From assembly GCA_029945195.1 (NCBI GenBank), contig GCA_029945195.1_4117.1: 64,000 nt of DNA; one strand, written 5' to 3'. Of the stretch, positions 1 to 16,570 are shown in pieces. The notes under the pieces are model-generated. The model was given only the letters and a program-made list of their open reading frames with translations, did not search any database and had not been told where the DNA came from. How positions within the stretch are numbered: the first letter of the stretch is position 1; each line of letters begins with the position of its first letter. The translations under genes and the position numbers were made by a program. Origin of the DNA: a phage.

Positions 1-38
1 CCGTATTAAAAAGATCGCAGTACTTGAATAAAAAGTAC

Positions 39-66
39 TTGCAAACTAAGTTTAAACGCGTATAAT
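39..66 (+). promoter_or_regulatory. sigma70-type promoter (TTGCAA-16-TATAAT)
   Basis: -35 TTGCAA 39-44, -10 TATAAT 61-66; AGTACT in -35 flank. Confidence 0.6.
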
Positions 67-78
67 ACTTTATATCAG

Positions 79-97
79 GTGGGGAATAGTTCCCCAC
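79..97 (+). promoter_or_regulatory. 5' leader hairpin GTGGGGAA-TAG-TTCCCCAC
   Basis: perfect 8-bp inverted repeat about 13 nt after -10, upstream of SD AAGGAG 104-109. Confidence 0.6.
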
Positions 98-116
98 TAA
101 AGCAAGGAGTAATAAA

Positions 117-347
117 ATGACCACTATGTATATGATCGAATTGAAAGCCGTAAAAGATACTACCACAAATAAAACTACTTACTTACAGCGGATCTGCGGT
201 GTATGGCAACGTATTAGTAAAGTAAAGTACTATAAATTAACATCATATGCCAATCGTTCGGATTCATTCAGTACTGAAATAAAAGGTAATAAAGTACACC
301 AATACGGCACTTATTATTATTATAACCTGGACGCGATTGCAGTATAA
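117..347 (+). CDS. hypothetical early protein (76 aa)
   Basis: ORF track; SD AAGGAG 7 nt upstream; promoter+hairpin cassette. Confidence 0.6.
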   Translation: MTTMYMIELKAVKDTTTNKTTYLQRICGVWQRISKVKYYKLTSYANRSDSFSTEIKGNKVHQYGTYYYYNLDAIAV

Positions 348-377
348 GTAGTTTACAAATCTTTACAATTGCCAGTA

Positions 378-406
378 TTGACTTATTTTGTCAGTACTGG
401 CATAAT
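378..406 (+). promoter_or_regulatory. promoter TTGACT-17-CATAAT driving short noncoding unit
   Basis: -35 378-383, -10 401-406, CCAGTACTGG palindrome in spacer; conserved motif TAGCCCATAGGGTGCG at 429-444 downstream. Confidence 0.5.
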
Positions 407-521
407 GTATTCATTGGCAGATAAGCCGTAGCCCATAGGGTGCGGAAGTGTATCTATAGAAAAAGTAGTTTAGTACAGTTACAATTGTGCACCCGGTGGG
501 TTAGCTGTTGTCATGGGGTAT

Positions 522-550
522 ATTATACCAGTACTGGATAGTGCTGTCAA
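522..550 (-). promoter_or_regulatory. minus-strand promoter TTGACA-17-TATAAT convergent with 378-406
   Basis: minus-strand -35 at 545-550, -10 at 522-527; minus-strand copy of conserved motif at 488-505. Confidence 0.5.
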
Positions 551-595
551 TACCTTTTTACTATTCAGTACTGAAAACTATTTGATAAAAAGTAC

Positions 596-623
596 TTGCA
601 AACTATGTTTAAAAGCGTATAAT
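596..623 (+). promoter_or_regulatory. sigma70-type promoter (TTGCAA-16-TATAAT)
   Basis: -35 596-601, -10 618-623. Confidence 0.55.
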
Positions 624-630
624 GTTTTAC

Positions 631-705
631 ATCAGGACGGGGAACGAAATAAGTAACTTCCCGTTAAGTAGCCCAGGAGTAAGGCACACGAAAAACTCCC
701 CTGAT
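631..705 (+). ncRNA. conserved ~75-nt structured leader element, copy 1
   Basis: closed by ATCAGG/CCTGAT stem, internal hairpin ACGGGGAA..TTCCCGT; near-identical copy at 9669-9741 with the same flanking promoters. Confidence 0.4.
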
Positions 706-713
706 AAAATAGT

Positions 714-741
714 TTGACAATTGTTTTTAAAAGCGTATAAT
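714..741 (+). promoter_or_regulatory. sigma70-type promoter (TTGACA-16-TATAAT)
   Basis: -35 714-719, -10 736-741. Confidence 0.6.
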
Positions 742-773
742 ACTTACATCAACTACTGAATGAGGGTTACAAA

Positions 774-1385
774 ATGAAAACTATCACTACTACTACTTTC
801 GTTATGGATTTTTCTGAATTGAACGCAGAACAAAAAACGTCAGCTATCGAACTGGTTCGGGAACGTGAAAAAAACTCAAACGACAATTATTTTTCTGAAA
901 GTGAAATTGAATACTATAAAGAAACAGTACTACCGGAATATGGCATTAATGACGCTGAAATACAATTCAGTGGTTTTTGGTCCCAGGGTGACGGTGCATC
1001 AATCAGTACTGACCACGTTGACGCAGTGAAGTTTTTACGCAAGGTTAGAGCGTTAACTAAGTATCGCTCAATCCGTCACCTGCTGAATGAAGATGAATTA
1101 TCTATGAGGGTACAGCGTTCTCAATCCCGCTACTCACACGAAAACACTGTAAGCGGGTACATTGAATCGGGGTACACTGATTTAACAGCAAAACAGGAAG
1201 CGTTAGCCAATGAGCTTGAGGAATTGCTTACTGTTACTATTCGTGAATTATCTCGCAAGTTGTACCGTGATTTAGAGAATGCATATGAGGATCAATTCAC
1301 TACTGAGAACATCACGGCACTGATCGAGGGTAACGAGTATCAATTCAATGTTATTGATGGCGTAGTAGAATCAATCGCATATTAA
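774..1385 (+). CDS. hypothetical protein (203 aa)
   Basis: ORF track; SD GAGGG upstream; promoter 714-741. Confidence 0.65.
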   Translation: MKTITTTTFVMDFSELNAEQKTSAIELVREREKNSNDNYFSESEIEYYKETVLPEYGINDAEIQFSGFWSQGDGASISTDHVDAVKFLRKVRALTKYRSIRHLLNEDELSMRVQRSQSRYSHENTVSGYIESGYTDLTAKQEALANELEELLTVTIRELSRKLYRDLENAYEDQFTTENITALIEGNEYQFNVIDGVVESIAY

Positions 1386-1440
1386 TTTAGTACTGAGATA
1401 ATGGCGGGGAATGGTTCCCGCCTTTACTGAGGATTATCTA

Positions 1441-1647
1441 ATGAGTGATTTAATCGAACGTATCAAAGAGCTTGAAGAAAAAGAATTACAGTTAATCGGA
1501 TTGCGTAATAAAGTTTATTCAGAGCTTGGAGGCTTCATACAGGCTTGGGATAGTGGTGATCCTGATGCTTTACCTGCTAACCGCCAGGCGATGATCAATG
1601 ATGTGAGAAGTGTCTTTGATTATGTTTTAAAAAGTACTGGACACTAA
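1441..1647 (+). CDS. hypothetical protein (68 aa)
   Basis: track ORF 1411-1647 trimmed to ATG 1441: SD GAGGA 1428-1432; upstream in-frame ATG lies in hairpin 1403-1422. Confidence 0.5.
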   Translation: MSDLIERIKELEEKELQLIGLRNKVYSELGGFIQAWDSGDPDALPANRQAMINDVRSVFDYVLKSTGH

Positions 1648-1717
1648 GCAATAAAGGCGTATAATACTTTATATCGAGAGCGGGAATAGTTCCCGCTACT
1701 AATGAGGAATACTACAA

Positions 1718-1882
1718 ATGAATACTTTTACCTTCGCTCAATTGAACGCCCTGGATGTATTGTCTGATGCTTTGCGGGATGCAACTGAAAGCGGTTTATT
1801 TGACAATGTTGACATTCACCCTGATGTAATTAATAATTTTTGTGATGCTATCGCAGAAGTACTGGAAGATCTAAAAAAATAA
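1718..1882 (+). CDS. hypothetical small protein (54 aa, not in track)
   Basis: hand-translated; -10 TATAAT 1660-1665, hairpin 1679-1697, SD GAGGA 1704-1708. Confidence 0.5.
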   Translation: MNTFTFAQLNALDVLSDALRDATESGLFDNVDIHPDVINNFCDAIAEVLEDLKK

Positions 1883-1892
1883 TAGAAAGTAC

Positions 1893-1920
1893 TTGCAATT
1901 AGTTTTTAGTACTGTATAAT
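1893..1920 (+). promoter_or_regulatory. sigma70-type promoter (TTGCAA-16-TATAAT)
   Basis: -35 1893-1898, -10 1915-1920; AGTACTG immediately before -10. Confidence 0.6.
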
Positions 1921-1932
1921 AGTTTACATAGA

Positions 1933-1952
1933 GGGGAGAAATGGTTCTCCCT
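1933..1952 (+). promoter_or_regulatory. 5' leader hairpin GGGAGAA-ATGG-TTCTCCC
   Basis: inverted repeat between -10 and SD. Confidence 0.55.
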
Positions 1953-1970
1953 GGTAATGAGGAAAATAAA

Positions 1971-2192
1971 ATGGCTAATATCACTACTCTTTCTCAACTG
2001 GAAGCACTGGTTAAATCTATGCGGGAACATGCCGACAATATCGGCGTAAAAGATCCAGCCGTTTGCTTCTGCGACGAAATGAATGATGATACACTGGTAA
2101 TAGCAGAAGTACAAGATATTTCTAACTATTCATCGCGTTACACTGGCGGCGTAGCAAATAAAGGTGACTTCTGTTTATACCTTACCAAATAA
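1971..2192 (+). CDS. hypothetical protein (73 aa)
   Basis: track ORF 1941-2192 trimmed to ATG 1971 (SD GAGGA 1959-1963); upstream ATG sits in hairpin loop. Confidence 0.55.
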   Translation: MANITTLSQLEALVKSMREHADNIGVKDPAVCFCDEMNDDTLVIAEVQDISNYSSRYTGGVANKGDFCLYLTK

Positions 2193-2197
2193 CAACG

Positions 2198-2227
2198 CGG
2201 GGAGATAATAACTCCCCGTTACTTTTT
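2198..2227. terminator. rho-independent terminator-like hairpin (possibly bidirectional)
   Basis: CGGGGAG/CTCCCCG stem, then TTACTTTTT; also 3' of the minus-strand short unit. Confidence 0.5.
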
Positions 2228-2298
2228 CAGTACTGAATCATTTAATAGACGGATCTATGCACCCTGTGGGTTAGTGACTGTATCGTCTTTATGTAGTA

Positions 2299-2327
2299 AT
2301 TATGCCAGTACTGGATGCAGTTGTCAA
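2299..2327 (-). promoter_or_regulatory. minus-strand promoter TTGACA-17-CATAAT driving short noncoding unit
   Basis: minus -35 at 2322-2327, -10 at 2299-2304; conserved motif copy (minus) at 2258-2274. Confidence 0.5.
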
Positions 2328-2360
2328 CAATTATTTTTCAAATACTTTTTATTAAAATAC

Positions 2361-2388
2361 TTGCTATTAGTTTTTAAACGCGTATAAT
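2361..2388 (+). promoter_or_regulatory. sigma70-type promoter (TTGCTA-16-TATAAT)
   Basis: -35 2361-2366, -10 2383-2388; hairpin 2398-2416 follows. Confidence 0.55.
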
Positions 2389-2436
2389 GTTTTGCATAGG
2401 GGGAGCGGTTCCCCCTGGTAACTAAGGAATAAGAAA

Positions 2437-2673
2437 ATGCTTGAACAAATCAAATCAACGTCTGCTAATGTAACGGGAACGGTATCACACTTTATTGGTG
2501 ATGAATCGCGGGGCGTTCCCTATTGTGCTGTACATGTAAACACTGAGGGTAACTACTGGTTTACGGTTTACGGTTCATATTCATTTGGACGGCCAGGGCA
2601 TCAAAAAATTCTGGATAAAGTACAACCAACGGGTAAAAATATCACTGCCGAAATGTTTTATAAAAAATCATAA
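2437..2673 (+). CDS. hypothetical protein (78 aa)
   Basis: ORF track; SD AAGGA; promoter+hairpin cassette. Confidence 0.6.
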   Translation: MLEQIKSTSANVTGTVSHFIGDESRGVPYCAVHVNTEGNYWFTVYGSYSFGRPGHQKILDKVQPTGKNITAEMFYKKS

Positions 2674-2757
2674 AGTACTTGCAATTAGTTTTTAGTACTG
2701 TACAATATTTTACATCGCACGGGGGAGCGGTTCCCCCTGGTAACTAAGGATAATCAA

Positions 2758-3057
2758 ATGAAAATTGCAATCATCGCCCTGGCTTTATCTGTTTCCTCTT
2801 TCGCTGTTAACGCGTCGTTAGATGTACCTAGTGAAAAATTCATTCAGTGTACTGTTGCGATGACAGATGAAAGTACTGGCGAGATTGTTTTAAAGGATTT
2901 AGAGATCCAGCCAGAAGCATTTAAAAGCGGCCCGTTCCATGAAGAAGACGAAAAAGGTAGCACGACAATTTATTACGATGTAAGTACTAAGCGTGGATCG
3001 GTCACGGTTATGGATACTGAGAAAGTAACGCACACCGGAGTAATTAACTGTTTATAA
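2758..3057 (+). CDS. small secreted/periplasmic protein (99 aa)
   Basis: N-terminus MKIAIIALALSVSSFAVNAS is signal-peptide-like; SD AAGGA; promoter+hairpin upstream. Confidence 0.6.
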   Translation: MKIAIIALALSVSSFAVNASLDVPSEKFIQCTVAMTDESTGEIVLKDLEIQPEAFKSGPFHEEDEKGSTTIYYDVSTKRGSVTVMDTEKVTHTGVINCL

Positions 3058-3074
3058 TATAGTACTGAATCACT

Positions 3075-3103
3075 AGCCCACCTTAAACAGTGGGCTTTTT
3101 TGT
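3075..3103 (+). terminator. rho-independent terminator
   Basis: AGCCCAC-loop-GTGGGCT then TTTTTTG; exact duplicate at 3810-3837. Confidence 0.7.
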
Positions 3104-3305
3104 TTTTGTATTATCGTAGTACTGCATACTTTAAAAATAGTTTTAAAATAGTAGTTGACATTACCACAAAAAGGCGTAGAATGTATTACATCAAGACGGG
3201 GAGCACTAAGTAGACCGCCAGTAAGTCGAACGAAAAACTGGACACGTCGATAAAACTTTGATACACTAATAAACGTAAACTAAACTTTAATTGAGGATTT
3301 ATAAA

Positions 3306-3788
3306 ATGGCTAATGTAAAATCATTCCTGAAAGCACTGATTTCAAACGATACTGTTATTGCTGCTGAATTGTTGGCTGACCTGGATAACGATACCATGAA
3401 AGCAGTACGCAACAATTTTAACATTGCGTACAGTGAAGCTAAAGAACTGCAAGCCAAAAAGGTAGCAGAACTGGAAGAACAGAAAAAAGCCCGTGAAGCC
3501 GAACTGCAAGCAACAATCGAAAGTATCCAGGCGGCGGTGGCTGGATTGGATCTGGAAGTAGTTGTAGAAATGGCACATAAAGCCCTGGCGGTTAAGTATG
3601 GTGAAGATAAGCCAGAATCTAAACCTAAAAAATGGATTCAAGAACGTGTTACTGTAGTACTTGATAACGGGGAAGAACATATGATTCCTGTACGCGGTAA
3701 CTGCATTGCGGTAGTACTGGACGCTATCAAAGAAAGCGGTATGACTCGCGAGGAATGGATCGAAGCTCATCGCAAAGTTGAAGCATAA
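3306..3788 (+). CDS. hypothetical charged, helix-rich protein (160 aa)
   Basis: track ORF 3291-3788 trimmed to ATG 3306 (SD GAGGA); K/E/A-rich. Confidence 0.55.
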   Translation: MANVKSFLKALISNDTVIAAELLADLDNDTMKAVRNNFNIAYSEAKELQAKKVAELEEQKKAREAELQATIESIQAAVAGLDLEVVVEMAHKALAVKYGEDKPESKPKKWIQERVTVVLDNGEEHMIPVRGNCIAVVLDAIKESGMTREEWIEAHRKVEA

Positions 3789-3809
3789 CAATTAAAGTAC
3801 TGAATCACT

Positions 3810-3837
3810 AGCCCACCTTAAACAGTGGGCTTTTTTG
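3810..3837 (+). terminator. rho-independent terminator
   Basis: same AGCCCACCTTAAACAGTGGGCTTTTTT as 3075-3103. Confidence 0.7.
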
Positions 3838-3855
3838 TGTCTGTAGTATTCCAGT

Positions 3856-3955
3856 CCACCAGCACCGCCTAGAATCGATTCTAACGCATTAAACTGATTA
3901 TCTGATACATCGCCCTAGCTGGTGGCGTTAAGGTCGTTAGAATGCGATTGAGAGC
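3856..3955. repeat. interleaved inverted repeats containing Chi and its complement
   Basis: CCACCAGC 3856-3863 vs GCTGGTGG 3918-3925; ...AATCGATTCTAACGCATT 3874-3890 vs CGTTAGAATGCGATTGAG 3935-3952. Confidence 0.5.
3918..3925 (+). other. Chi site GCTGGTGG
   Basis: exact E. coli Chi octamer, intergenic. Confidence 0.6.
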
Positions 3956-4073
3956 GTTTAAATTATTTTGCAAAAAGTAATAAAAAGTACTTGCACGATT
4001 AAGAGATTAGCGTATAATGTTTTACATCGAGAGGGGGAAACGGTTCTCCTTCCAAATCAAAGGAATCAAAACA

Positions 4074-4301
4074 ATGGCTATTATCATTACTCGCGTATCT
4101 GGTACTACTGGCAACGAACAAGTAGTTGCAGTCATTACGAACAAGGCAGGTGCGGAATTGCAAAATGCAATGAATACCTGGGCCGTTAATGAGTTCGGTC
4201 AGTGGGCAAGTGTAGCATACATTGAAACCTATCAAGTGCCGACCATTAGTTTAACGGATCTTGGTGTGGAACGTATCCTTTGCCTGGATGAATTAAATTA
4301 A
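4074..4301 (+). CDS. hypothetical protein (75 aa)
   Basis: track ORF 4017-4301 trimmed to ATG 4074 (SD AAAGGA); MAII N-terminus shared with 4388 and 7178 genes. Confidence 0.55.
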   Translation: MAIIITRVSGTTGNEQVVAVITNKAGAELQNAMNTWAVNEFGQWASVAYIETYQVPTISLTDLGVERILCLDELN

Positions 4302-4387
4302 AAAAAGTACTTGCAAAGTAAATCGAATAAAGTATAATACATTACATCAAGGGGAGAAATGATTCTCCCCACTACAAGGAAACTAAA

Positions 4388-4600
4388 ATGGCTATCATTA
4401 CTAAAATCAAAGTTAACAAGACTATCGTTAAACTGGCAGAAGTGAAAGAAGGTTATAAAGTATCTTGGTGCGGTATGTATCGGACGTTCGCAGATATAGA
4501 TGATGCGATCAATTATTACAGTGACACGGTTAAAAACTTTGTTCGTGCTGATGTGGTTATGGCAGTGGCAACATATAAAGCAGCGAAAGAAAGTAAGTAA
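4388..4600 (+). CDS. hypothetical protein (70 aa)
   Basis: ORF track; promoter + hairpin 4351-4370 + SD AAGGA. Confidence 0.6.
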   Translation: MAIITKIKVNKTIVKLAEVKEGYKVSWCGMYRTFADIDDAINYYSDTVKNFVRADVVMAVATYKAAKESK

Positions 4601-4691
4601 AAATATTATCACAGTACTATTGACATAGTTTGATAGTACTGGCATAATAGATTTTATCAAGACGACACATATTAATTTAAGGAATACTAAA

Positions 4692-5416: not shown

Positions 5417-5785
5417 ATGAACGTTAATCAAGTACTGAATGAGATCGAAAGCATCATTAAACCGATGAAGCGTACTGATGCTATGTTAACACCGGAAGAA
5501 TGCCGCCTTTATGAGCGTTACAGCGTCGAACAAGTCCAGGCAATGGCTAGTATCCTTCCGGTTAGTAGTACTGCTAAAGGTGGCCCAGGTTTAACCGTAC
5601 AGGATAAAATCGATCTCCTTAAGCTCAATGGCTATGTAGTTGATGTCGATAAAGAAAAAGTAATGGTATATGATAGTAGTATTGAGCAAGACTATTATAA
5701 CTATTGCATGATTGAAAATGATCCTATTGATTCTATCATTGAAAATATGGTTAACAAAGCATTAAAAGATTTAGATTTAGTTTGA
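5417..5785 (+). CDS. hypothetical protein (122 aa)
   Basis: ORF track. Confidence 0.55.
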   Translation: MNVNQVLNEIESIIKPMKRTDAMLTPEECRLYERYSVEQVQAMASILPVSSTAKGGPGLTVQDKIDLLKLNGYVVDVDKEKVMVYDSSIEQDYYNYCMIENDPIDSIIENMVNKALKDLDLV

Positions 5786-5859
5786 CAGTACTGTAAAAAG
5801 GCGTATAATGTTTTACATAGAGGGGGGAAATGGTTCTCCCCAATAACAGGAGATACAAA

Positions 5860-6012
5860 ATGAAACAATACAACGCTCGGTTTGATGTTACTATCGGTAA
5901 CGGCAAAGGTCAATTCTCTTTCAGTACTCGACGCAGTTATACAGAAAACTTCCTGCGTAATTGTGCACTGACCGCCGCACAAATTAAACATTACTTTCAG
6001 GCTAAAAAATGA
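5860..6012 (+). CDS. hypothetical small protein (50 aa)
   Basis: track ORF 5830-6012 trimmed to ATG 5860 (SD AGGAG); hairpin about 5820-5842 upstream. Confidence 0.5.
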   Translation: MKQYNARFDVTIGNGKGQFSFSTRRSYTENFLRNCALTAAQIKHYFQAKK

Positions 6013-6237: not shown

Positions 6238-6314
6238 AAAAAGTGGTTGACTTCGGTCAGCCATTTTGCTATTATATATTCATTGAGAGATAGCTCACTA
6301 GCCCACAGGGTGCA
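6238..6314 (+). repeat. composite intergenic repeat, copy A
   Basis: hairpin 6238-6267 with embedded TTGACT 6247-6252 and TATTAT 6270-6275; conserved motif CTAGCCCACAGGGTGCA 6298-6314. Confidence 0.6.
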
Positions 6315-6368: not shown

Positions 6369-6396
6369 TTGCAAACTATCTCAATAAGCGTATAAT
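6369..6396 (+). promoter_or_regulatory. sigma70-type promoter (TTGCAA-16-TATAAT)
   Basis: -35 6369-6374, -10 6391-6396; hairpin 6410-6428. Confidence 0.6.
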
Positions 6397-6447
6397 GTTT
6401 TACATCGAAAGGGGAAACGGTTTCCCCTGGTAATAAGGAAACAAATC

Positions 6448-6789
6448 ATGACTATCTCAATTGCTCAATCTAACTTTGAAAATGAAATCATCGCCCAGGC
6501 ACTGCGTTTAAATGATGGTCGGGCCGAAATTAATTACGGTTTCAATTCAGGCGGTTGCGAAAAATATCAGTACTTTACAACGGCTGATGGCTGTGTCCTG
6601 GGCATCAATACAGTTATTGTAAACATTCAGAAAATTAATTTCAATGATCCAGACGATAGCCAGTTTTACATTGTAGGCGTAGACGTGAATTATGAGGATG
6701 ATTCACTAACTGATGATCACACTGGCGAGAAGTTAGAAAGTGCATACGGTGAAGATGATTATCAGTCAGTACCGGAAGATTTTGAATAA
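6448..6789 (+). CDS. hypothetical acidic protein (113 aa)
   Basis: ORF track; SD AAGGA; promoter+hairpin cassette. Confidence 0.6.
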   Translation: MTISIAQSNFENEIIAQALRLNDGRAEINYGFNSGGCEKYQYFTTADGCVLGINTVIVNIQKINFNDPDDSQFYIVGVDVNYEDDSLTDDHTGEKLESAYGEDDYQSVPEDFE

Positions 6790-6882
6790 TATTAAAAAAT
6801 AGTTTGACAATAGATTATAGTACTGTATAATAGTTTACATCAAGGGGAGAATAGTTCTCCCCACTAACAGAGAGAAAACAAA

Positions 6883-7095
6883 ATGGCTAATATCTGCACT
6901 GCTCTGAAAAATGCAAAACAAGTTTTATTTTCTGATCACGATCATTTAAACAAGGATATTACTGGCGTTCGGAATATCAAAGATGTAAAAAGTGTTATGG
7001 GTATCTATTGCAATATGAAACGTGTTGGAACGTTCGGCGACAAAGTACTATACCAGGCAGGGGATTACAATTTTACACTGACGATCATTAACTAA
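6883..7095 (+). CDS. hypothetical protein (70 aa)
   Basis: ORF track; hairpin 6844-6862 upstream. Confidence 0.6.
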   Translation: MANICTALKNAKQVLFSDHDHLNKDITGVRNIKDVKSVMGIYCNMKRVGTFGDKVLYQAGDYNFTLTIIN

Positions 7096-8492: not shown

Positions 8493-8573
8493 AAAGTATT
8501 GACAGTACTGAAAGATAGTGTATACTGTATTACATCAAGGGGAAACGTCTTCCCCTACTAAGAGGAAATGAAA

Positions 8574-8762
8574 ATGGAAAACTTATCAAGTATTTTAGTA
8601 CAAGATGATTTCGGTAATCCTGGAAGTGCTATCATCGTTCGGGGCAATAAGGCAACGTTTGTTATTGCTGGTGGGCCTGTACAGCGTAGCATTAAAAACA
8701 ATGCAGTTACAATCAATAATGTTCGCTATCGCTTAGATAAAGAATTGATTCATAAACTTTAA
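8574..8762 (+). CDS. hypothetical protein (62 aa)
   Basis: track ORF 8568-8762 trimmed to ATG 8574 (SD AGAGGA 8561-8566); hairpin 8538-8556. Confidence 0.5.
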   Translation: MENLSSILVQDDFGNPGSAIIVRGNKATFVIAGGPVQRSIKNNAVTINNVRYRLDKELIHKL

Positions 8763-8848
8763 AAAAAGTATTTGACAAAGCATCGTAGTACTGTATAATA
8801 GTTTACATGAAGGGGAGAAATGATTCTCCCCACTAAGAGGAAAGAAAC

Positions 8849-9061
8849 ATGCAAGGTCAACTAATCGTTCGTAAATGGTCTGATACTAACGAAAAACCGT
8901 GGGATGTTCAATATATCGGACCAGACGGTGTTTCACGTTATCAACCTGGCGTAACGCATAGTACTGAGCAATATGCCGCCGCTCACCGTGAACGCCTGTT
9001 AGAATCTATGAAACAGGGATTCTGTGAAAAATTCATTCAAGATCATTGGCTGAAAGATTAA
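8849..9061 (+). CDS. hypothetical protein (70 aa)
   Basis: ORF track; promoter + hairpin 8812-8831. Confidence 0.6.
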   Translation: MQGQLIVRKWSDTNEKPWDVQYIGPDGVSRYQPGVTHSTEQYAAAHRERLLESMKQGFCEKFIQDHWLKD

Positions 9062-9497: not shown

Positions 9498-9567
9498 AAA
9501 GGGATTGACTCCGGTCAGTCCCTTTGCTATTATATATTCATTGAAACAATCTAGCCCACAGGGTGCA
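9498..9567 (+). repeat. composite intergenic repeat, copy B
   Basis: hairpin 9498-9525 with embedded TTGACT 9505-9510 and TATTAT 9528-9533; motif CTAGCCCACAGGGTGCA 9551-9567. Confidence 0.6.
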
Positions 9568-9633: not shown

Positions 9634-9661
9634 TTGCATTGTACTTAGAATCAAGTATAAT
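9634..9661 (+). promoter_or_regulatory. sigma70-type promoter (TTGCAT-16-TATAAT)
   Basis: -35 9634-9639, -10 9656-9661. Confidence 0.55.
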
Positions 9662-9668
9662 GTTTTAC

Positions 9669-9741
9669 ATCAGGACGGGGAACGAAATAAGTAACCCCGT
9701 TAAGTAGTCCAGGAGTAAGACATACGAAAACCTCCCCTGAT
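9669..9741 (+). ncRNA. conserved ~75-nt structured leader element, copy 2
   Basis: about 90% identical to 631-705 with the same flanking promoters. Confidence 0.4.
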
Positions 9742-9748
9742 AAAATAG

Positions 9749-9777
9749 TTTGACAATAGAAATTAAACGAGTATAAT
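9749..9777 (+). promoter_or_regulatory. sigma70-type promoter (TTGACA-17-TATAAT)
   Basis: -35 9749-9754, -10 9772-9777. Confidence 0.6.
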
Positions 9778-10008: not shown

Positions 10009-10097
10009 TAAAATAGTTTGACAATAGTTTTTAGTACTGTATAATATTTTACATCAAGTGGGGAATAGTTCCCCACCTAACAAAGAGAGAAATTAAA

Positions 10098-10373
10098 ATG
10101 CGGATTCTACTGACAGCTAACGAAATCGAGCAAGTACTGACTACTAACCTGGAACAATGGAAACGTGATGCAGATATCCAGGCGGTACAATGGCTTAACG
10201 ATAAGTTAACGCCGGATGACTTAAGCAAGATTGTAGATCCTCAATTCTACGAAGATATTCACGACACCGCGTTAAGCGTCGAGGATGTACTTGATAAGCA
10301 CTATATTGATACTGATTTACAGGTTTACGGTCGTAAAAACTTTATCACTATTCACGACATTTACAATACTTAA
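10098..10373 (+). CDS. hypothetical acidic protein (91 aa)
   Basis: ORF track; hairpin 10059-10077. Confidence 0.6.
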   Translation: MRILLTANEIEQVLTTNLEQWKRDADIQAVQWLNDKLTPDDLSKIVDPQFYEDIHDTALSVEDVLDKHYIDTDLQVYGRKNFITIHDIYNT

Positions 10374-10460
10374 GTATTGACAAAGTATCTTAGTACTGTA
10401 TAATAGTTTACATCAAGGCAGGGGAATGGTTCCCCTCCTAACTAAAAGAGAGAAATTAAA

Positions 10461-10784
10461 ATGGCTATGATCCTTACCCAGAAAGTAGAAATGAAAATTG
10501 TAACTTCCTTTGACATTAAAGTTAATCGGTGGACTGATAGCCACGGCAATACTTACCACTCATGCTACGTGTCTGCATTGATTGGTGACCGCTGGGAAGA
10601 CCTGGGACACGAAACATTTACTTACGGTTACGGCACACAAGGCGAGTACACTGGTTTGGAAATCATTAAGGAAACTGTAATAGGTTTCAACCCGAAAGAG
10701 AAAGTACTACACAGAATTGAGAAAGAGATCAACAAAGAAATTACAGTTCGATACTACGATGTAAAACGTAAGAAAGACATGTAA
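10461..10784 (+). CDS. hypothetical protein (107 aa), paralog of 4692-5015
   Basis: shared RWTDSHGNTYHSC / FTYGY / KRKKD motifs; hairpin 10420-10436. Confidence 0.65.
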   Translation: MAMILTQKVEMKIVTSFDIKVNRWTDSHGNTYHSCYVSALIGDRWEDLGHETFTYGYGTQGEYTGLEIIKETVIGFNPKEKVLHRIEKEINKEITVRYYDVKRKKDM

Positions 10785-11302: not shown

Positions 11303-11327
11303 GGCGGGAACTATTCCCGCCTTTTTT
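11303..11327 (+). terminator. rho-independent terminator
   Basis: GGCGGGAA-CTA-TTCCCGCC then TTTTTT. Confidence 0.7.
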
Positions 11328-11621: not shown

Positions 11622-11654
11622 GTATCTATACCAACACAGAGAGAGAGAAACAAA

Positions 11655-11873: not shown

Positions 11874-11902
11874 TTGACAGTACTCAAATGTTTTAGTACT
11901 AT
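11874..11902 (+). promoter_or_regulatory. promoter TTGACA-17-TACTAT (duplicate of 11593-11621)
   Basis: near-identical 30-nt block. Confidence 0.5.
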
Positions 11903-11930
11903 GTACGCATACCAACACGGGGAAAACAAA

Positions 11931-12173
11931 ATGATTACTTTAGAAAAACGTATCAAAGAGACTACAACGCTGGTGGAACTGTTAACCGTTCTTAAATGCC
12001 GGGTAACTCCATTCAGTACACCGGACTTTATCAACATGGTGGACGTTAACGGTCGATATCGTATTGCGGTCGAACAAGGTACGGCAAAAGTATTCAGTAC
12101 TAAAAATACGCGTGAAGTATTCCACGCAGTTCAAGTAAAAAAAGTAGTTGCCATTGATAGTAAAGTACTGTAA
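11931..12173 (+). CDS. hypothetical protein (80 aa)
   Basis: track ORF 11874-12173 trimmed to ATG 11931 (SD GGGGAAAA). Confidence 0.5.
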   Translation: MITLEKRIKETTTLVELLTVLKCRVTPFSTPDFINMVDVNGRYRIAVEQGTAKVFSTKNTREVFHAVQVKKVVAIDSKVL

Positions 12174-12204
12174 TATAGTTTCATTAACTCAAGGAGTCAA
12201 CACA

Positions 12205-12789
12205 ATGCGTAACTATACTAAATTCATCCGTTCACTTCATGCAATGGAAACCAACAAAGAGATCCTTTCAGCTTGTCGGTTAGCTGGACTGGAGATCGTC
12301 GGTGCGGGTTCTTCCCGTATTGTATTCGCTTTAAATGATCGGTTAGTGATTAAGGTCGCGAATTGTGATGCGGGTGTAGAACAAAATGAAACTGAATGTA
12401 AGGTATGGAATTTTTTAGATTATGACCGTCCGCACCTTAAACAGTACTTTGCTAAAGTGCATATGCATTTATGCGATCCTGATAATCTGTTTATTGTTAT
12501 GGATCGTTTGAGTACTGCAAGCAAAGGCAGTGTAAAGCATGTAAACGCGTGCAATGAGTTAAAGTACAATATTAAACGTAATACGGTAGAACGCCATCAC
12601 CATTTCGCTGATGCTCTCAATCACGTTGATGATACATTATCCACACTAACGATAAGAGATATCAGAAAACAGAATATCGGCCAGGATCGCAACGGCTTGA
12701 TTAAAGTACTTGATTACGGTTTAACCCGCAATATCTGGAATCAGTACTATAAAAAACGTGATGTTAACGCGATAACTATAACACGATAA
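12205..12789 (+). CDS. minimal eukaryotic-like protein kinase fold (194 aa)
   Basis: track ORF trimmed to ATG 12205 (SD AAGGAG); Gly loop VGAGSSRIVF, LVIKV lysine, hinge FIVMDRL, catalytic loop IRDIRKQNIG, DYG; C-lobe subdomains VIII-XI absent. Confidence 0.55.
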   Translation: MRNYTKFIRSLHAMETNKEILSACRLAGLEIVGAGSSRIVFALNDRLVIKVANCDAGVEQNETECKVWNFLDYDRPHLKQYFAKVHMHLCDPDNLFIVMDRLSTASKGSVKHVNACNELKYNIKRNTVERHHHFADALNHVDDTLSTLTIRDIRKQNIGQDRNGLIKVLDYGLTRNIWNQYYKKRDVNAITITR

Positions 12790-12800
12790 AAAAGATTAAA

Positions 12801-12875
12801 AAAGGGATTGACTCCAGTCAGTCCCTTTGCTATTATATATTCATTGAGAGATAACTCACTGACCCATAGGGTGCG
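12801..12875 (+). repeat. composite intergenic repeat, copy C
   Basis: hairpin 12801-12828 with embedded TTGACT 12808-12813 and TATTAT 12831-12836; motif CTGACCCATAGGGTGCG 12859-12875. Confidence 0.6.
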
Positions 12876-12930
12876 GAAGTGTATCTATTATATAAGTATT
12901 CAGTACTGAAAACTATTTTATAAAAAGTAC

Positions 12931-12958
12931 TTGCAAACTATCTCAATGAGCGTATAAT
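12931..12958 (+). promoter_or_regulatory. sigma70-type promoter (TTGCAA-16-TATAAT)
   Basis: -35 12931-12936, -10 12953-12958. Confidence 0.6.
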
Positions 12959-13013
12959 GTTTTATATCGAGAGGGGGAAATGGTTCTCCCTGGTACTAAA
13001 AGGAATCAAGACG

Positions 13014-13235
13014 ATGACTACTATGACATGCGTTCACGCTTCAAATCTTCTGAATGATGCAGCATTTAAAGCAGGTGAAGAATATCAATGCTATCGGGAT
13101 GAAAATAAAAAAGTTTTCGTCGTTGATGCTAACGGTTTCCATATTGAATTACAATCCGGCTTCACTGGTTTAAATGGTAAATCAGTATGGGGCGTTAATG
13201 ATGATAATGGTCTTTATCACTTTATCCGTAATTAA
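13014..13235 (+). CDS. hypothetical protein (73 aa)
   Basis: track ORF 12957-13235 trimmed to ATG 13014 (SD AAAGGA). Confidence 0.55.
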   Translation: MTTMTCVHASNLLNDAAFKAGEEYQCYRDENKKVFVVDANGFHIELQSGFTGLNGKSVWGVNDDNGLYHFIRN

Positions 13236-13318
13236 GTATTGACAAAGTATATCAGTACTGTATAATAGTTTACATCAAGGGGAGAATAGTTCTCCCCACA
13301 ATAAAAGGAAACAAAATT

Positions 13319-13591
13319 ATGTCCAGCTACTCCGCTACTATGATTATTAAAGATATGAACGGTAATCCTACTTCTGCTGGTGGATCATTTGGTAACATTA
13401 ATTTAGATGGGCGGTTATCAATTGAATCAGCCATCAATGCCGCGAAAGAAGTTTTTAAGAATGAATGTACTGTAAGCAAACTGGATTATATGGGCTTCGC
13501 TATCGAGAAAACTAATCGTTTTGTGGACTACAAAAAACCACTGATGATCGATACTAACCTGAAAGCTAACGAAGTGGAATACTTATTATGA
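13319..13591 (+). CDS. hypothetical protein (90 aa)
   Basis: ORF track; hairpin 13279-13297; contains in-frame Chi 13376-13383. Confidence 0.6.
   Translation: MSSYSATMIIKDMNGNPTSAGGSFGNINLDGRLSIESAINAAKEVFKNECTVSKLDYMGFAIEKTNRFVDYKKPLMIDTNLKANEVEYLL
13376..13383 (+). other. Chi site GCTGGTGG (inside CDS)
   Basis: exact octamer. Confidence 0.55.
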
Positions 13592-13779
13592 CAGTTGAAG
13601 AAGTTAAAAAAGTACTGGCAGTACTACGCTATCATAATCATTGCAAGGTGAAGAATGATCCTGATTATGTTGATTCATCCCTGGAGGAAGACACCTTAAA
13701 CGCGATAAGCTATATGCAAACATTAGCAAAGCGTATGACCGAAAAGAATAGGCCGGACTATATCGGAAATAAAATTTAA
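13588..13779 (+). CDS. hypothetical protein (63 aa)
   Basis: ORF track; ATGA overlap with upstream gene. Confidence 0.5.
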   Translation: MTVEEVKKVLAVLRYHNHCKVKNDPDYVDSSLEEDTLNAISYMQTLAKRMTEKNRPDYIGNKI

Positions 13780-13867
13780 AAAGTACTTGCATTGTAGTTA
13801 GATTAACGTATAATGTTTTATATCGAGAGGGGGGAAATGGTTTCCCCTCAAGTCCAGGAGATACACC

Positions 13868-14131
13868 ATGAACACTATCGAAATCACTATCAATGCACAC
13901 GTATACGACAACGTAGTACTGCAAACTACTATGACCGCTAATGATACCAGTACTTTGCGGAATATCGTTATTAGTTCAGTATGTGCCGCTATCGGTGATG
14001 TTGCCCTGGAAAATGCAAAACACGTCAACGATGCCTTTACGATGTGCAAACGTGATAACTCAAAACATATCATCTGCGAAGGTTACGGCGGTGTAGAATA
14101 CAATGTTTATATGAAAAAAGTACTTGCATAA
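13868..14131 (+). CDS. hypothetical protein (87 aa)
   Basis: ORF track; SD AGGAG; hairpin about 13825-13847. Confidence 0.6.
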   Translation: MNTIEITINAHVYDNVVLQTTMTANDTSTLRNIVISSVCAAIGDVALENAKHVNDAFTMCKRDNSKHIICEGYGGVEYNVYMKKVLA

Positions 14132-14199
14132 TAACTAAAACAAAGTATAATGTTTTGCATAGGGGGAGATATCCTCCCCCACTAATAAGGAGTACTAAA

Positions 14200-14424
14200 A
14201 TGGCTAACTTTGATGAACTGATGCGGGAAGTAGCTACCCTGGCAGAAGAGAAGAAATCATTTGATTCTATCTATAACACCGCTTACAGTGATTCAGTACT
14301 GGCATGTACTCAGGATCAAAAAGATGAACTGATCGCCACCTATCATGAAGCATGGAAGTATTACCGCCAATGGGAGAAAGAAGAAAGCGAGTCTACCATC
14401 AACGGCATCAATAATCTAATCTAA
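14200..14424 (+). CDS. hypothetical protein (74 aa)
   Basis: track ORF 14155-14424 trimmed to ATG 14200 (SD AAGGAG). Confidence 0.55.
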   Translation: MANFDELMREVATLAEEKKSFDSIYNTAYSDSVLACTQDQKDELIATYHEAWKYYRQWEKEESESTINGINNLI

Positions 14425-14499
14425 AGTTTTATTTCAGTACTATTGACATAGCTTGATAGTACTGATGTAATAACTTTACTAACTACAAGGGGAAACATA

Positions 14500-14757
14500 A
14501 TGGAACAGTTCACACAATATCGGGTAAATCCTCAAGCTATGGCCTACGTAGAAGACCATAAAACATTACCAGTACAGACACCAATCAAAGGCCGTATCTA
14601 TCGTGCTATGCAGTGGAATAACGCCTATAATGGCTATAAAGCGGTATCCGCTGCAATGTACTTAGGGGATGGCGAATGGTTTGATCCAAATAATCCTGGT
14701 GCACTCGATAGTACTGAACAAATGACATGGGCCGACTATATCGAAGATATCTCATAA
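14500..14757 (+). CDS. hypothetical protein (85 aa)
   Basis: ORF track. Confidence 0.55.
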   Translation: MEQFTQYRVNPQAMAYVEDHKTLPVQTPIKGRIYRAMQWNNAYNGYKAVSAAMYLGDGEWFDPNNPGALDSTEQMTWADYIEDIS

Positions 14758-14845
14758 AAACTATTTGACAGTACTACAAGATAATGTATAATGTTTTACA
14801 TAGAGCGGGGGAATAGTTCTCCCGCACCTTTAGGAGTAAAACATT

Positions 14846-15046
14846 ATGTCAATCGCTAACGAATTGGTTGCAGTACTGAATGAAGCAAAAGCCAACTGCA
14901 TCGATGTACAGATCAAAGAGCTTGGCAATGGCTTGATCGGCTGTACTTGTTCCGTGCAAACGGCTACCGATTATCGGGAAGTGGAATCACTCGAATCACT
15001 GGTACGGTATATTAAAATCCTGGTAGAAGATTGGAGAATCATCTAA
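14846..15046 (+). CDS. hypothetical protein (66 aa)
   Basis: ORF track; SD AGGAG. Confidence 0.55.
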   Translation: MSIANELVAVLNEAKANCIDVQIKELGNGLIGCTCSVQTATDYREVESLESLVRYIKILVEDWRII

Positions 15047-15061
15047 CAAAAAAGAATAAAA

Positions 15062-15132
15062 AAAAGGGATTGACTCCGGTCAGTCCCTTTGCTATTATAT
15101 ACGCATAGACAAAAATTAGCCCACAGGGTGCA
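15062..15132 (+). repeat. composite intergenic repeat, copy D
   Basis: hairpin with embedded TTGACT 15070-15075 and TATTAT 15093-15098; motif TAGCCCACAGGGTGCA 15117-15132. Confidence 0.6.
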
Positions 15133-15175
15133 GAGAAGTATCTATAAGATAGTTAATAACGGTGAGTAACTATCT

Positions 15176-15183
15176 GCTGGTGG
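15176..15183 (+). other. Chi site GCTGGTGG
   Basis: exact octamer, intergenic. Confidence 0.6.
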
Positions 15184-15303
15184 ATGTAATGCCAGTACTC
15201 AAAACTATTTCAAAAAAAGTATTGACAAAGTATATCAGTACTGCAATAATGTATCTCGTAGGGCGGCAATGGTGCGACGGCCCACAAAGTTAGGAGATTC
15301 AAA

Positions 15304-15630
15304 ATGAGTACTTCAATCGCTATCGTTAAAGCTTTCATCCGTACCAATTTCGACCGCATTACTGTTGATGGTAATGATCGGGAAGTAGAATACTCTTTCA
15401 TCGTTGCACAAACCGCAAACGGTGCACGCTATATCTTAAACGATAGTGAAGCTAACCACTACTTCTATAATAAGGGATTACATTATATCCCTAGCGAAGT
15501 AGTCTACACTAAGATGAATAAGCTAGTAGACAAGATTAACGCAAAGGGTACTATAGATTTACAGTACTGGACCGAAACCGATCCAGAATACGGATCACAT
15601 CGTTACCTGAATCCAGGAATTAAAATGTAA
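15304..15630 (+). CDS. hypothetical protein (108 aa)
   Basis: ORF track; SD AGGAG. Confidence 0.6.
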   Translation: MSTSIAIVKAFIRTNFDRITVDGNDREVEYSFIVAQTANGARYILNDSEANHYFYNKGLHYIPSEVVYTKMNKLVDKINAKGTIDLQYWTETDPEYGSHRYLNPGIKM

Positions 15631-15719
15631 AAAGTACTTGCATTGTACTTAGAATCAAGTATAATGTTTTACATAGAGAGGGGGAAATGGTTCTCCCTCC
15701 TAAATTAAGGAGTTTTATC

Positions 15720-16121
15720 ATGACCTTCTCAATCACTTCCTTCGCTGACGTTTTAGTACTGGCTCGGACTTTTGGTAAAGATGCACTGGAGTACGCTGTA
15801 AGTAATGGCACTCTCCAACCGGAACAATGCCGCATCATTGGAAACTGCAAACGTTGGGCGGTATCCAATACTATTGCACTAGAAAACTTCAACGATGGTA
15901 ACAATGAGTATTCAGTTGATGCAGTATTCGAAGCCGTTGATCTTGGCGGTATCTATAACACTAACCTAAATGATGTGCGTATCGTTCGCACGGGGTTCGG
16001 TGCTTATGATGTATCTATCCGTGAAGCTATGAACACCGGATACATTAGTAAGGACTTACTTGCTCACATCATGCAGCTATGGACGGAACGTAACGAAGCA
16101 CGCACTATCTTAGGGCTGTAA
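15720..16121 (+). CDS. hypothetical protein (133 aa)
   Basis: track ORF 15687-16121 trimmed to ATG 15720 (SD AAGGAG). Confidence 0.6.
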   Translation: MTFSITSFADVLVLARTFGKDALEYAVSNGTLQPEQCRIIGNCKRWAVSNTIALENFNDGNNEYSVDAVFEAVDLGGIYNTNLNDVRIVRTGFGAYDVSIREAMNTGYISKDLLAHIMQLWTERNEARTILGL

Positions 16122-16189
16122 GCATTACACATCACCAAACATCATAGGCCGCTCTCTAGCGGCCTTAACTATATCAGGAGGGCATACAT

Positions 16190-16399
16190 ATGTTCTATAC
16201 AGTATACAGCGTTCTAGGTACTATTGCTGGCGTACATGATAACGTCAGTGATGCTATGCGTACAGTACTGCAACAGGTTCCACTAAAGCCTAAGACCATT
16301 AAGCAGATGACAGCACGACTAACCAGGGCGACCGCTGGCGTGGAAGTATGGCAGGACTACGGGGATACACAGATAATCGTTAGCGTAACGAAGGATTAA
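16190..16399 (+). CDS. hypothetical protein (69 aa)
   Basis: ORF track; SD AGGAGG; 5' hairpin 16146-16165. Confidence 0.55.
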   Translation: MFYTVYSVLGTIAGVHDNVSDAMRTVLQQVPLKPKTIKQMTARLTRATAGVEVWQDYGDTQIIVSVTKD

Positions 16400-16570
16400 T
16401 GCGTAAAGGGATCTAGTACTGATTCAGAAAAAAGTCAAGGCGTTTTTAAAATAATGCGTTAAAAAAATGCATAGGTAATCCCTTGACTTTTTTAAAATAA
16501 AAGGGATTGGACTATGGCAAAATGCGTAGGGGGCTAAAGGGCGGGTAACCTTAGCGACTTCGATAAAGGG
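16398..16570 (+). repeat. iteron-like direct repeats (AATGCGT x3, TAAAGGG x3-4)
   Basis: TAAAGGG at 16404, 16535, 16564 plus AAAAGGG at 16499; AATGCGT at about 16399, 16454, 16521. Confidence 0.45.
16434..16493 (+). terminator. terminator-like long hairpin
   Basis: GTCAAGG 16434-16440 / CCTTGAC 16481-16487 then TTTTTT; large loop. Confidence 0.35.

Follow-up and report, generated by a model that had tools for sequence, protein, structure and literature searches.

The opening 16.4 kb of a 64,000-nucleotide stretch of phage DNA (GenBank assembly GCA_029945195.1, contig GCA_029945195.1_4117.1; the whole stretch is called the window below) raises the question of why a short inverted repeat recurs between the promoter and the start codon of one small gene after another, and whether it acts as RNA or as DNA. 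An earlier note, made from the sequence alone, had listed 21 such hairpins. A hairpin search on both strands recovered a G-rich/C-rich inverted repeat at all 21 positions, with stems of 6-9 bp and loops of 3-5 nt. The promoter expected before each copy is present at 20 of them and lacking at 1403. We refer to the 20 units of promoter, hairpin, Shine-Dalgarno sequence (SD) and ATG as cassettes. A full cassette precedes about 20 of roughly 46 open reading frames (ORFs), so that the description "most genes" was too broad.

The promoters of the 20 cassettes have a -35 of TTGACA, TTGCAA or a near variant and a -10 of TATAAT (18 copies), TACAAT (one) or TATACT (one). The spacer, first described as 16-17 nt, is exactly 16 nt in all 20 and never 17. 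An AT-rich AAAAAGTAC tract lies upstream of these promoters. Between the end of the -10 and the first paired base there are 8-15 nt (mode 12), as had been claimed, and the ATG follows the stem after 11-24 nt, typically about 20, behind a GGA/GAG-type SD. For 74 distinct cassettes from 8 loci the two distances are 11.8 +/- 1.35 nt and 19.7 +/- 2.25 nt, respectively; the -10 and the ATG each stand at a fixed spacing from the hairpin. The whole unit is ~95 bp long and consists of an A-rich tract, the strong 16-bp-spacer sigma70 promoter, the conserved start region TTTACATCRAR, a hairpin of 7-9 bp whose 5' arm is rich in purines and whose 3' arm is rich in pyrimidines, a short A-rich linker, and the SD with the ATG. 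Tied to the promoter and to the ribosome-binding site (RBS) at once, the hairpin fits a compact, self-contained 5' untranslated region (5' UTR) module. Several ORF calls are lengthened by an ATG in the loop or in TATAATG; in-frame loop ATGs, which the earlier note had pointed to, exist at three cassettes (1941, 5830 and 15687) and not at the others.

A chance origin of the pairing of hairpin and promoter is excluded by counts of the promoter classes, by the rest of the window and by shuffling. Among plus-strand promoters with at least a 10/12 match in the first 16.4 kb, a hairpin follows 14 of 20 with a 16-nt spacer and none of 12 with a 17-nt spacer. At the same match level it follows none of 25 promoters between 16.4 and 64 kb, and no cassette hairpin was found in these 47.6 kb, where the sole GGG/CCC hairpin, at 44386, is unrelated. 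When the 50 nt downstream of the promoters are shuffled, 0.13 +/- 0.36 hairpins are expected.

The case for selection on structure was built on hairpins collected from the window and from phages G17, JP4, 121Q and A4 (Asteriusvirus), RaK2 and Muenster (Alcyoneusvirus), Hallingskeid (an Erwinia phage), A73 (Vequintavirinae) and nepoznato (Phapecoctavirus); with a stricter promoter cut-off this gave 112 promoter-linked hairpins with 44 distinct stems from ten loci. Whole-cassette MAFFT alignment misaligns arms of unequal length, and covariation was therefore counted on length-matched hairpin sets. This check, which the earlier note had proposed, came out in favor of pairing. The 28 sequences with 3-nt loops are 96.4% paired and 7 of their 8 pairs have changed on both sides, with a covariation score of 0.62 (0.23 when shuffled); the 22 sequences with 4-nt loops are 97.7% paired, all 8 pairs have changed on both sides, and the score is 0.71 (0.20 when shuffled). 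In neither set did any of 500 shuffles reach the observed score. Slid pairing registers brought the paired fraction down to 50-67%, and exchanging the 3' arms among 43 distinct stems lowered pairing from 7.65 to 5.58 of 8 (0/5000). The hairpin is kept by every partner in 53 pairs of orthologous cassettes (those with the same downstream ORF), 24 of which differ; where stem and loop lengths are equal, 11 of 11 changed base pairs are still paired, six through a double change and five through G·U. Internal non-Watson-Crick pairs on the plus strand, counted with a strand-symmetric detector, are 22 G·T and 6 A·C (p = 0.004), a bias that points to sense RNA rather than duplex DNA.

Between genera, entire stems are replaced. 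RaK2, Muenster and Hallingskeid carry unrelated stems at the same position (GGGGATACA/TGTATCCCT, GGGAATGAA/TTCATTCCC, GGAGATTCCA/TGGAATCTCC and GGGAAGAG/CTCTTCCC), and GGGGCAA/TTGCCCC and GGGGGTA/TATCCCC are further examples from Klebsiella and Erwinia phages. Despite their different stems, these phages retain the promoter, the start region and the spacing. Since stems vary within and between genomes with pairing kept, and since wobble pairs are biased toward the sense strand, RNA structure is favored over a sequence-specific DNA operator, in agreement with the earlier note. Judged by these comparisons, selection keeps the cassette hairpin as a structure of the sense strand. In predicted folds it is the main structure of the leader (-9 to -13 kcal/mol; whole hairpin leaders -13 to -16 kcal/mol), the SD is unpaired in all, and the ATG is unpaired in all but one or two. 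We considered whether CUCC in the 3' arm, as an anti-SD, might tie up the real SD in an alternative fold. This found no support, because every fold has the cassette hairpin formed and leaves the SD free; a small alternative CTCC...GGAG pairing occurs in cassette 20 only.

The hairpin had been placed on every early mRNA, but it is limited to one of two promoter classes. The second class, also abundant in the region, has TTGACA, a 17-nt spacer, and then TGnCATAAT or TATTAT. The start region ...ACATCAA is common to both, and leaders directly behind the 17-nt-spacer promoters are short and essentially unstructured (0 to -1.7 kcal/mol). Over the ten loci a hairpin follows 107 of 177 promoters with a 16-nt spacer versus 5 of 155 with a 17-nt spacer, and the split recurs in RaK2, Muenster and Hallingskeid. 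Conversely, leader-type hairpins without a promoter number about five among roughly one hundred, once terminator elements that embed a -35 and cassettes with a TGGACA -35 are removed. The counterpart of the hairpin at 1403 is promoter-less in 121Q as well; in G17 and A4 it is a promoter-bearing cassette with a near-identical stem and the same downstream sequence.

The cassettes also coincide with sites of gene gain and loss. Chained blastn matches of the first 16.4 kb against G17, JP4, 121Q and A4 define 39 distinct homology breakpoints, 17 of which fall in cassettes, whose share of the region is 11.7% (p = 6e-7 under a uniform null). In five whole-gene indels, a single promoter-region repeat in the window matches two copies that surround an extra gene in a relative (Table 1). 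Cassette 7 is, by alignment, identical through its ATG to the 121Q cassette before g280 and then runs into the orthologue of g281; g281 of 121Q has a hairpin-less promoter, and the junction lies within the shared SD-ATG segment. Over the first 90 nt of the gene behind cassette 17, G17, JP4 and A4 are 99-100% identical to the window, yet in these phages the hairpin before the gene is the GCGGGGGAA tag TTCTCCCGC of cassette 19. From such junctions we infer that homologous recombination between cassettes probably causes the indels. Exchange extends beyond the genus: A73 and Asteriusvirus have in common a ~670-bp block of a non-coding leader, two cassettes and two genes at 83-90% identity, and nepoznato has several small genes in common and hairpin cassettes of its own. 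Records of ~150 kb labeled "Campylobacter phage" (e.g. B15, MG065650) match small early genes common to A73 and ~150-kb coliphages such as ESCO13, and their host label looks doubtful. A search with a DksA-like early-gene protein, meant to show where GAP32, CBB and similar phages have their early regions, matched mostly T4-like phages, and a strict cassette pattern found only five loci in IMG/VR, which were set aside.

We give a probability of roughly 0.55 to the reading that RaK2-like jumbo phages have in this unit a portable cassette for early-gene expression, in which the hairpin insulates or stabilizes the leader and the repeat supplies a homology tract for gene exchange. The hairpin would form co-transcriptionally as a self-contained leader module that starts ~5 nt into the transcript. 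It would lock the first ~25 nt of the mRNA, and the short, unstructured RBS would stay accessible whatever ORF follows. As a 5'-proximal structure it probably lengthens the life of its own transcript modestly, and it probably also caps the 3' end of processed RNA that reads through from the upstream gene; the geometry, as read from the sequence, does not fit a free-standing 3' stabilizer for that gene. Near-identical cassettes would act as homology tracts by which small orphan early genes are deleted, inserted, given a new leader or exchanged between phages, much like the early promoter/stem-loop (PeSL) cassettes discussed below. The leader role, whether insulation or stability, is one that we infer from where the hairpin sits and how it is conserved.

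Several points weigh against this reading. The covariation sequences had been picked as hairpins and share descent by duplication, so that the shuffle p-values overstate their independence; whole-stem replacement between genera is independent of those p-values. Of the six leaders that were folded, two stand out little from their shuffles by z-score (-0.13 and -1.36), since shuffles rich in G/C fold too. Purines make up 89% of the 5' arm and 11% of the 3' arm, and a purely structural role does not require such asymmetry; it could have been left by compensatory changes that passed through G·U by transitions only, or a sign of an additional, sequence-specific partner. By sequence, a role in insulation or stability is indistinguishable from that of a protein-binding handle. 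The excess of breakpoints in cassettes is not significant against an intergenic-only null (6/14 versus 32% expected, p = 0.28), and we therefore claim cassettes as junctions only, not as hotspots beyond other intergenic repeats. Finally, the transcript start is placed by sigma70 rules. Sigma70 starts lie mostly 7-8 nt after the -10 with a preference for pyrimidine-purine, and on TATAAT-GTTTTAC-A-TC these rules make the A at the 8th nt after the -10 the most likely start.

This start bears directly on a second explanation, possible but doubtful in our view: that the hairpin is a classical 5'-terminal protective stem-loop of the ompA, papA or T7 phi10 type, which leaves no free 5' end, blocks RppH and the 5' sensor of RNase E and so stabilizes the early mRNAs. 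Emory, Bouvet and Belasco reportedly described 5'-terminal stabilizing stem-loops of this kind in E. coli mRNAs (ompA, papA). The T7 phi10 leader hairpin has a purine-rich 5' arm (GGGAGA...UUUCCC). The cassettes resemble ompA, papA and T7 gene 10 in design, with a short, sequence-independent 5' hairpin on a highly expressed mRNA and an unstructured RBS behind it, and, the arm purine bias aside, the covariation agrees with a function tied to structure rather than to sequence as in ompA/papA-type stem-loops. Behind a strong promoter, the hairpin is the first element with structure, at a fixed distance from the -10, and in a few copies (2361, 15638) extra flanking pairs leave only ~1 free nt. In second place the predicted transcripts have a pyrimidine (AU..., or AC... 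with an alternative start), which RppH disfavors (PMC8833179), and the same is predicted for hairpin-less leaders. However, the hairpins of ompA, papA and T7 gene 10 start 0-2 nt from the 5' end, whereas the predicted start here leaves a 5' tail, AUCRA, with a median of about 5 unpaired nt (range 1-8). A minimum of 2 unpaired nt at the 5' end is required by RppH and RNase E, with a preference for 3 or more (PMC8833179), so that ~5 free nt would suffice for both. The proposal of a 5'-terminal hairpin that blocks 5'-end-dependent RNase E decay is therefore not supported as it was put; it would hold only if the real starts lay closer to the stem than predicted. The variant in which a 5'-proximal hairpin blocks RNase E scanning despite a free tail was dropped, because scanning RNase E readily bypasses an orthogonal stem-loop (PMC9943677). 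Moreover, half of the early genes have no hairpin at all.

It is unlikely, although less easily told apart from the cassette reading, that the hairpin is a recognition handle, bound by a phage or host protein for which the early mRNAs that carry it form a regulon; the protein could be a repressor or shut-off nuclease like T4 RegA/RegB or an antiterminator in the manner of lambda N and boxB. Restriction of the hairpin to one promoter class in three genera would be expected of a regulon, the G-run at the 5' base and the purine/pyrimidine asymmetry of the arms are conserved beyond the needs of pairing, and the spacing to the SD is tight. In contrast, the loops vary freely (30 variants of 3-6 nt among the 112 hairpins), and the stems differ within one genome and are replaced between genera. 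An Rfam scan of 1-17 kb at E <= 1 gave no match on any cassette, and no boxA-like or other common flanking motif specific to the hairpin leaders was found. The likeness to lambda nut boxB goes as far as a small hairpin a short way downstream of early promoters; the boxB loop is conserved, a boxA goes with it and there is one site per operon, whereas here the loops vary and there is one copy per small gene. The arms have a polarity, with a G-rich, SD-like 5' arm and a C-rich, anti-SD-like 3' arm, and one RaK2 copy reads AGGAGGT/ACCTCCT. The common regulatory handle that the earlier note had offered as an alternative is neither favored nor contradicted by the analysis. It is equally improbable that this polarity, together with the link to one promoter class, marks an immediate-early regulon recognized by a phage or host factor, such as an RNA-binding shut-off or protection protein, or by the ribosome, so as to time or boost expression of the genes of the terminal repeat. 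If true, this would amount to a common post-transcriptional switch for the host take-over genes of jumbo phages.

We regard it as very improbable that the hairpin is a terminator or attenuator of the PeSL type, which would stop or damp read-through from upstream so that each small gene is transcribed alone. PeSL stem-loops of RB49/phi1 do cut downstream lacZ as strongly as rrnB T1 (PMC2839356), and in the window the same stem family followed by a T-run is terminator-like at 11303 and 2197. However, the cassette hairpin lacks a U-tract and thus, by sequence, is not an intrinsic terminator: the next 8 nt hold 1.8 T on average, at least 5 T occur in only 1 of 112 hairpins, and none of the 20 promoter-linked copies has such a tract, their stems being followed by ACTAA-, GGTAA- or CTAAC-type sequence. 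A terminator scan of the window called none of the 20, ARNOLD as run by the G17 annotators marks one of the 21 hairpins of G17, and separate canonical terminators exist at 3075, 3810, 7610 and 11303. Furthermore, a hairpin downstream of its own promoter would, as a terminator, also abort its own transcript. It is hardly credible that the palindrome is a DNA-level element (an operator for a dimeric protein, a cruciform or a site-specific recombination site) whose RNA folding is incidental, for although homology breakpoints fall at or inside the hairpin (2397, 4031, 8533, 13823) and one PeSL mini-circle crossover maps to the loop that caps the stem (PMC2839356), in one and the same genome the two half-sites vary in step, something that a shared binding protein would not need, the wobble mismatches are biased toward the sense strand, and the spacing to the SD and ATG is conserved.

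The closest known counterparts are the PeSL cassettes of the T4-type phages RB49/phi1, PST/T4 and nt-1/KVP40 (Arbiol et al. 2010, PMC2839356; Comeau et al. 2014, PMC4122927). Both are intergenic units of ~100 bp with an AT-rich tract, a near-consensus sigma70 early promoter, a stem-loop of G-tract and C-tract, and an SD with ATG; both cluster in variable (hyperplastic) regions full of small ORFans, and both lie at indel or replacement junctions between close relatives, with one cassette facing two cassettes around an extra gene. However, the PeSL stem-loop stands upstream of, within or just before the promoter start site, in five variable arrangements, and terminates upstream transcription, whereas the hairpin described here occupies one fixed site inside the predicted transcript, has no U-tract and shows RNA-type covariation. 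The phages also differ, being RaK2-like jumbo phages rather than Tevenvirinae, and blastn found no similarity to T4-type phages. Because the position and the probable action of the stem-loop differ, we would call the cassette a PeSL-like variant rather than a PeSL member, one in which the stem-loop appears to have moved into the transcript. Morons of lambdoid phages (Hendrix and colleagues, discussed in PMC2839356) are likewise single accessory genes with their own promoter that move between phage genomes. Their flanks, however, are unrelated and illegitimate recombination is thought to be responsible, whereas here a conserved repeat flank supplies homology. Publications on RaK2, phAPEC6, fEgEco12 and CBB do not describe the hairpin (the GAP32 publication lay outside that scope); for CBB, only RpoD-like promoters with an UP-like element were described. 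The literature that cites PeSL does not cover RaK2-like phages.

Megablast of positions 1-16,400 matched 167 phage records, the best of them being the Asteriusvirus jumbo coliphages JP4, G17, fEgEco12, 121Q and phAPEC6, at 89-96% identity; these relatives cover only 40-66% of the query, split into many pieces. From these matches the window is a 121Q/G17-like Asteriusvirus, that is, a RaK2-like jumbo coliphage. The matching DNA is annotated as a direct terminal repeat in vB_Ec-M-J, the direct terminal repeat of fEgEco12 measures 20,993 bp (PMC13070987), and the homologous early region of Klebsiella phage Muenster is a 20-kb terminal repeat predicted by PhageTerm; these annotations place the cassettes in the terminally redundant early region (~21 kb). 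This region is crowded with genes of 50-130 aa to which no function is assigned. The ORFs behind all 20 cassettes encode 50-133 aa, and none of the 20 has a Pfam family above threshold. The G+C content falls from 38.1% in the first 16.4 kb to 32.3% in the remainder of the window, and the cassettes end at the same boundary, 16400.

Table 1. Cassettes, promoter-less hairpins, whole-gene indels and copies of a second repeated motif in the window (positions in nt; loops in lower case; an empty promoter cell means that none is listed individually)
Feature	Position	Strand	Promoter	Hairpin	ATG	Remarks
Cassette 1	39..119	+	TTGCAA-16-TATAAT	78-98 GGTGGGGAA tag TTCCCCACT	117	SD before ATG
Cassette 2	1638..1720	+	TGGACA-16-TATAAT	1679-1697 AGCGGGAA tag TTCCCGCT	1718	
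Cassette 3	1893..1973	+		1933-1952 GGGGAGAA atgg TTCTCCCT	1971	In-frame loop ATG 1941
Cassette 4	2361..2439	+	TTGCTA-16-TATAAT	2397-2417 TAGGGGGAG cgg TTCCCCCTG	2437	Homology breakpoint 2397/2400
Cassette 5	2679..2760	+	TTGCAA-16-TACAAT	2721-2737 GGGGGAG cgg TTCCCCC	2758	
Cassette 6	3991..4076	+	TTGCAC-16-TATAAT	4031-4052 GAGGGGGAA acgg TTCTCCTTC	4074	Two G·U; breakpoint 4031
Cassette 7	4311..4390	+		4351-4370 GGGGAGAA atga TTCTCCCC	4388	Gene-deletion junction 4371-4388 vs 121Q, A4, G17
Cassette 8	5782..5862	+	TTGACA-16-TATAAT	5822-5841 GGGGGGAA atgg TTCTCCCC	5860	One G·U
Cassette 9	6369..6450	+		6410-6428 AGGGGAAA cgg TTTCCCCT	6448	
Cassette 10	6804..6885	+		6844-6862 GGGGAGAA tag TTCTCCCC	6883	A4 orthologue GGGAAGTA ccag TACTTCCC
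Cassette 11	8499..8576	+	TTGACA-16-TATACT	8538-8556 AGGGGAA acgtc TTCCCCT	8574	Acetyltransferase-gene indel junction 8516-8536
Cassette 12	8772..8851	+		8812-8831 GGGGAGAA atga TTCTCCCC	8849	
Cassette 13	10018..10100	+		10058-10076 GTGGGGAA tag TTCCCCAC	10098	
Cassette 14	10377..10463	+		10420-10436 AGGGGAA tgg TTCCCCT	10461	Matches two cassettes around extra gene in G17, A4 (10360-10467)
Cassette 15	12931..13016	+		12972-12991 AGGGGGAA atgg TTCTCCCT	13014	
Cassette 16	13239..13321	+		13279-13297 GGGGAGAA tag TTCTCCCC	13319	Matches two cassettes around extra gene in G17, A4 (13234-13331)
Cassette 17	13787..13870	+		13827-13849 GAGGGGGGA aatgg TTTCCCCTC	13868	Breakpoint 13823 (cassette swap)
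Cassette 18	14124..14202	+		14162-14180 GGGGGAG atatc CTCCCCC	14200	
Cassette 19	14765..14848	+		14805-14825 GCGGGGGAA tag TTCTCCCGC	14846	
Cassette 20	15638..15722	+		15678-15699 GAGGGGGAA atgg TTCTCCCTC	15720	
Promoter-less hairpin of same type	1403..1422	+	none	GGCGGGGA atgg TTCCCGCC then TTTACTG		Between stop codon and next SD
Promoter-less hairpin of same type	2197..2219	+	none	T-rich tail		Terminator-like on both strands; missing from the earlier list
Promoter-less hairpin of same type	11303..11321	+	none	GGCGGGAA cta TTCCCGCC then TTTTTT		Intrinsic-terminator form; missing from the earlier list
Indel 1	4371-4388					At hairpin cassette; 121Q g280
Indel 2	8516-8536					At hairpin cassette; acetyltransferase gene
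Indel 3	10360-10467					At hairpin cassette; extra gene in G17, A4
Indel 4	13234-13331					At hairpin cassette; extra gene in G17, A4
Indel 5	15214-15275		17-nt spacer, at 15222			Not at a hairpin cassette
RRCCCAYMGGGTGC-N6-TGTATCTAT motif starts	432, 6302, 7965, 9555, 12863, 15120	+				
RRCCCAYMGGGTGC-N6-TGTATCTAT motif starts	2270, 500	-				

Other promoter-associated elements occur in the same region. At 6240-6275, 9498-9533, 12801-12836 and 15063-15098, a 12-bp hairpin, AAAGGGATTGAC tccg GTCAGTCCCTTT, embeds a -35 TTGACT, ends in a T-run and is followed by a -10 TATTAT; this composite of terminator and promoter is also present in G17, 121Q, A4 and RaK2. With a stem-loop that overlaps the -35, it is closer to the classical PeSL layout than the cassettes are. 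At 596-741, 9634-9777 and 3155-3300, a long non-coding leader stands behind a promoter of the cassette type. The leader at 631-713 is 83 nt long (-19.3 kcal/mol), second perfect promoters stand behind the first two long leaders at 714 and 9750, and the block of long leader plus promoter is ~90% identical to A73. Convergent strong promoters ~170 bp apart, at 378-406 (+) and 550-522 (-), would yield overlapping antisense RNAs, each with the CCCAYMGGGTGC motif.

A second repeated element, RRCCCAYMGGGTGC-N6-TGTATCTAT, lies ~28 nt downstream of 17-nt-spacer promoters, with 47 copies in six loci (for the window, see Table 1). Its copies are among the non-coding sequences still alignable by blastn between Asteriusvirus and RaK2/Muenster, at 72-87% identity. 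RNAalifold detected no covariation in the second repeated element (CCCACAGGGTGC motif), and hence it is not a structured RNA of the cassette-hairpin kind. The RRCCCAYMGGGTGC-N6-TGTATCTAT element may act as a protein-binding or phage-specific promoter site, or else correspond to a sequence-specific small RNA (sRNA). The copy at 2270 (-) reads into the terminator at 2197-2219, which is bidirectional, as an sRNA gene ~100 nt long would.

The palindrome AGTACT occurs 237 times in the 64,000 nt versus 21 expected from base composition, most densely in 1-16400, and CAGTACTG occurs 53 times versus 0.6 expected. AGTACT is present in all three codon phases and in intergenic DNA, and some 4-kb bins of the window have 0-2 copies. 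It also takes fixed places in both promoter classes (AAAGTAC-TTGCAA; TAGTACTG-TATAAT; CCAGTACTGG-CATAAT). RaK2, Muenster and Hallingskeid have 6-7 copies per kb in their early regions, versus 0.2-0.5 per kb in A73 and nepoznato. From this distribution AGTACT looks like a DNA-level signal; no publication on the excess of this palindrome was found. Beyond the cassette region, (A)TGAAACAC or GGAACAC lies directly upstream of TTGAC(A/G) promoter-like sites at 18254-18297, 20743-20786 and 36863-36907, the first two within a run of short ORFs, similar to one another, beginning near 16.6 kb. The motif resembles the alternative -35 "TGAAACG" reported for CBB/GAP32 (PMC5259590).

As a portable expression unit with a structured leader, the cassettes would show by what means RaK2-like jumbo phages bring newly acquired orphan genes under immediate-early expression, with the same unit providing the homology for their exchange, part of which crosses phage families (Asteriusvirus, Vequintavirinae, Phapecoctavirus). 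They would extend the PeSL concept to another large group of phages, with the stem-loop as a part of the mRNA that is under selection at the RNA level. In practical terms, the cassettes pinpoint true start codons and define ~20 immediate-early genes per genome that are candidates for host take-over or anti-defense functions, and they may serve as natural, context-insulated parts for strong expression in E. coli.

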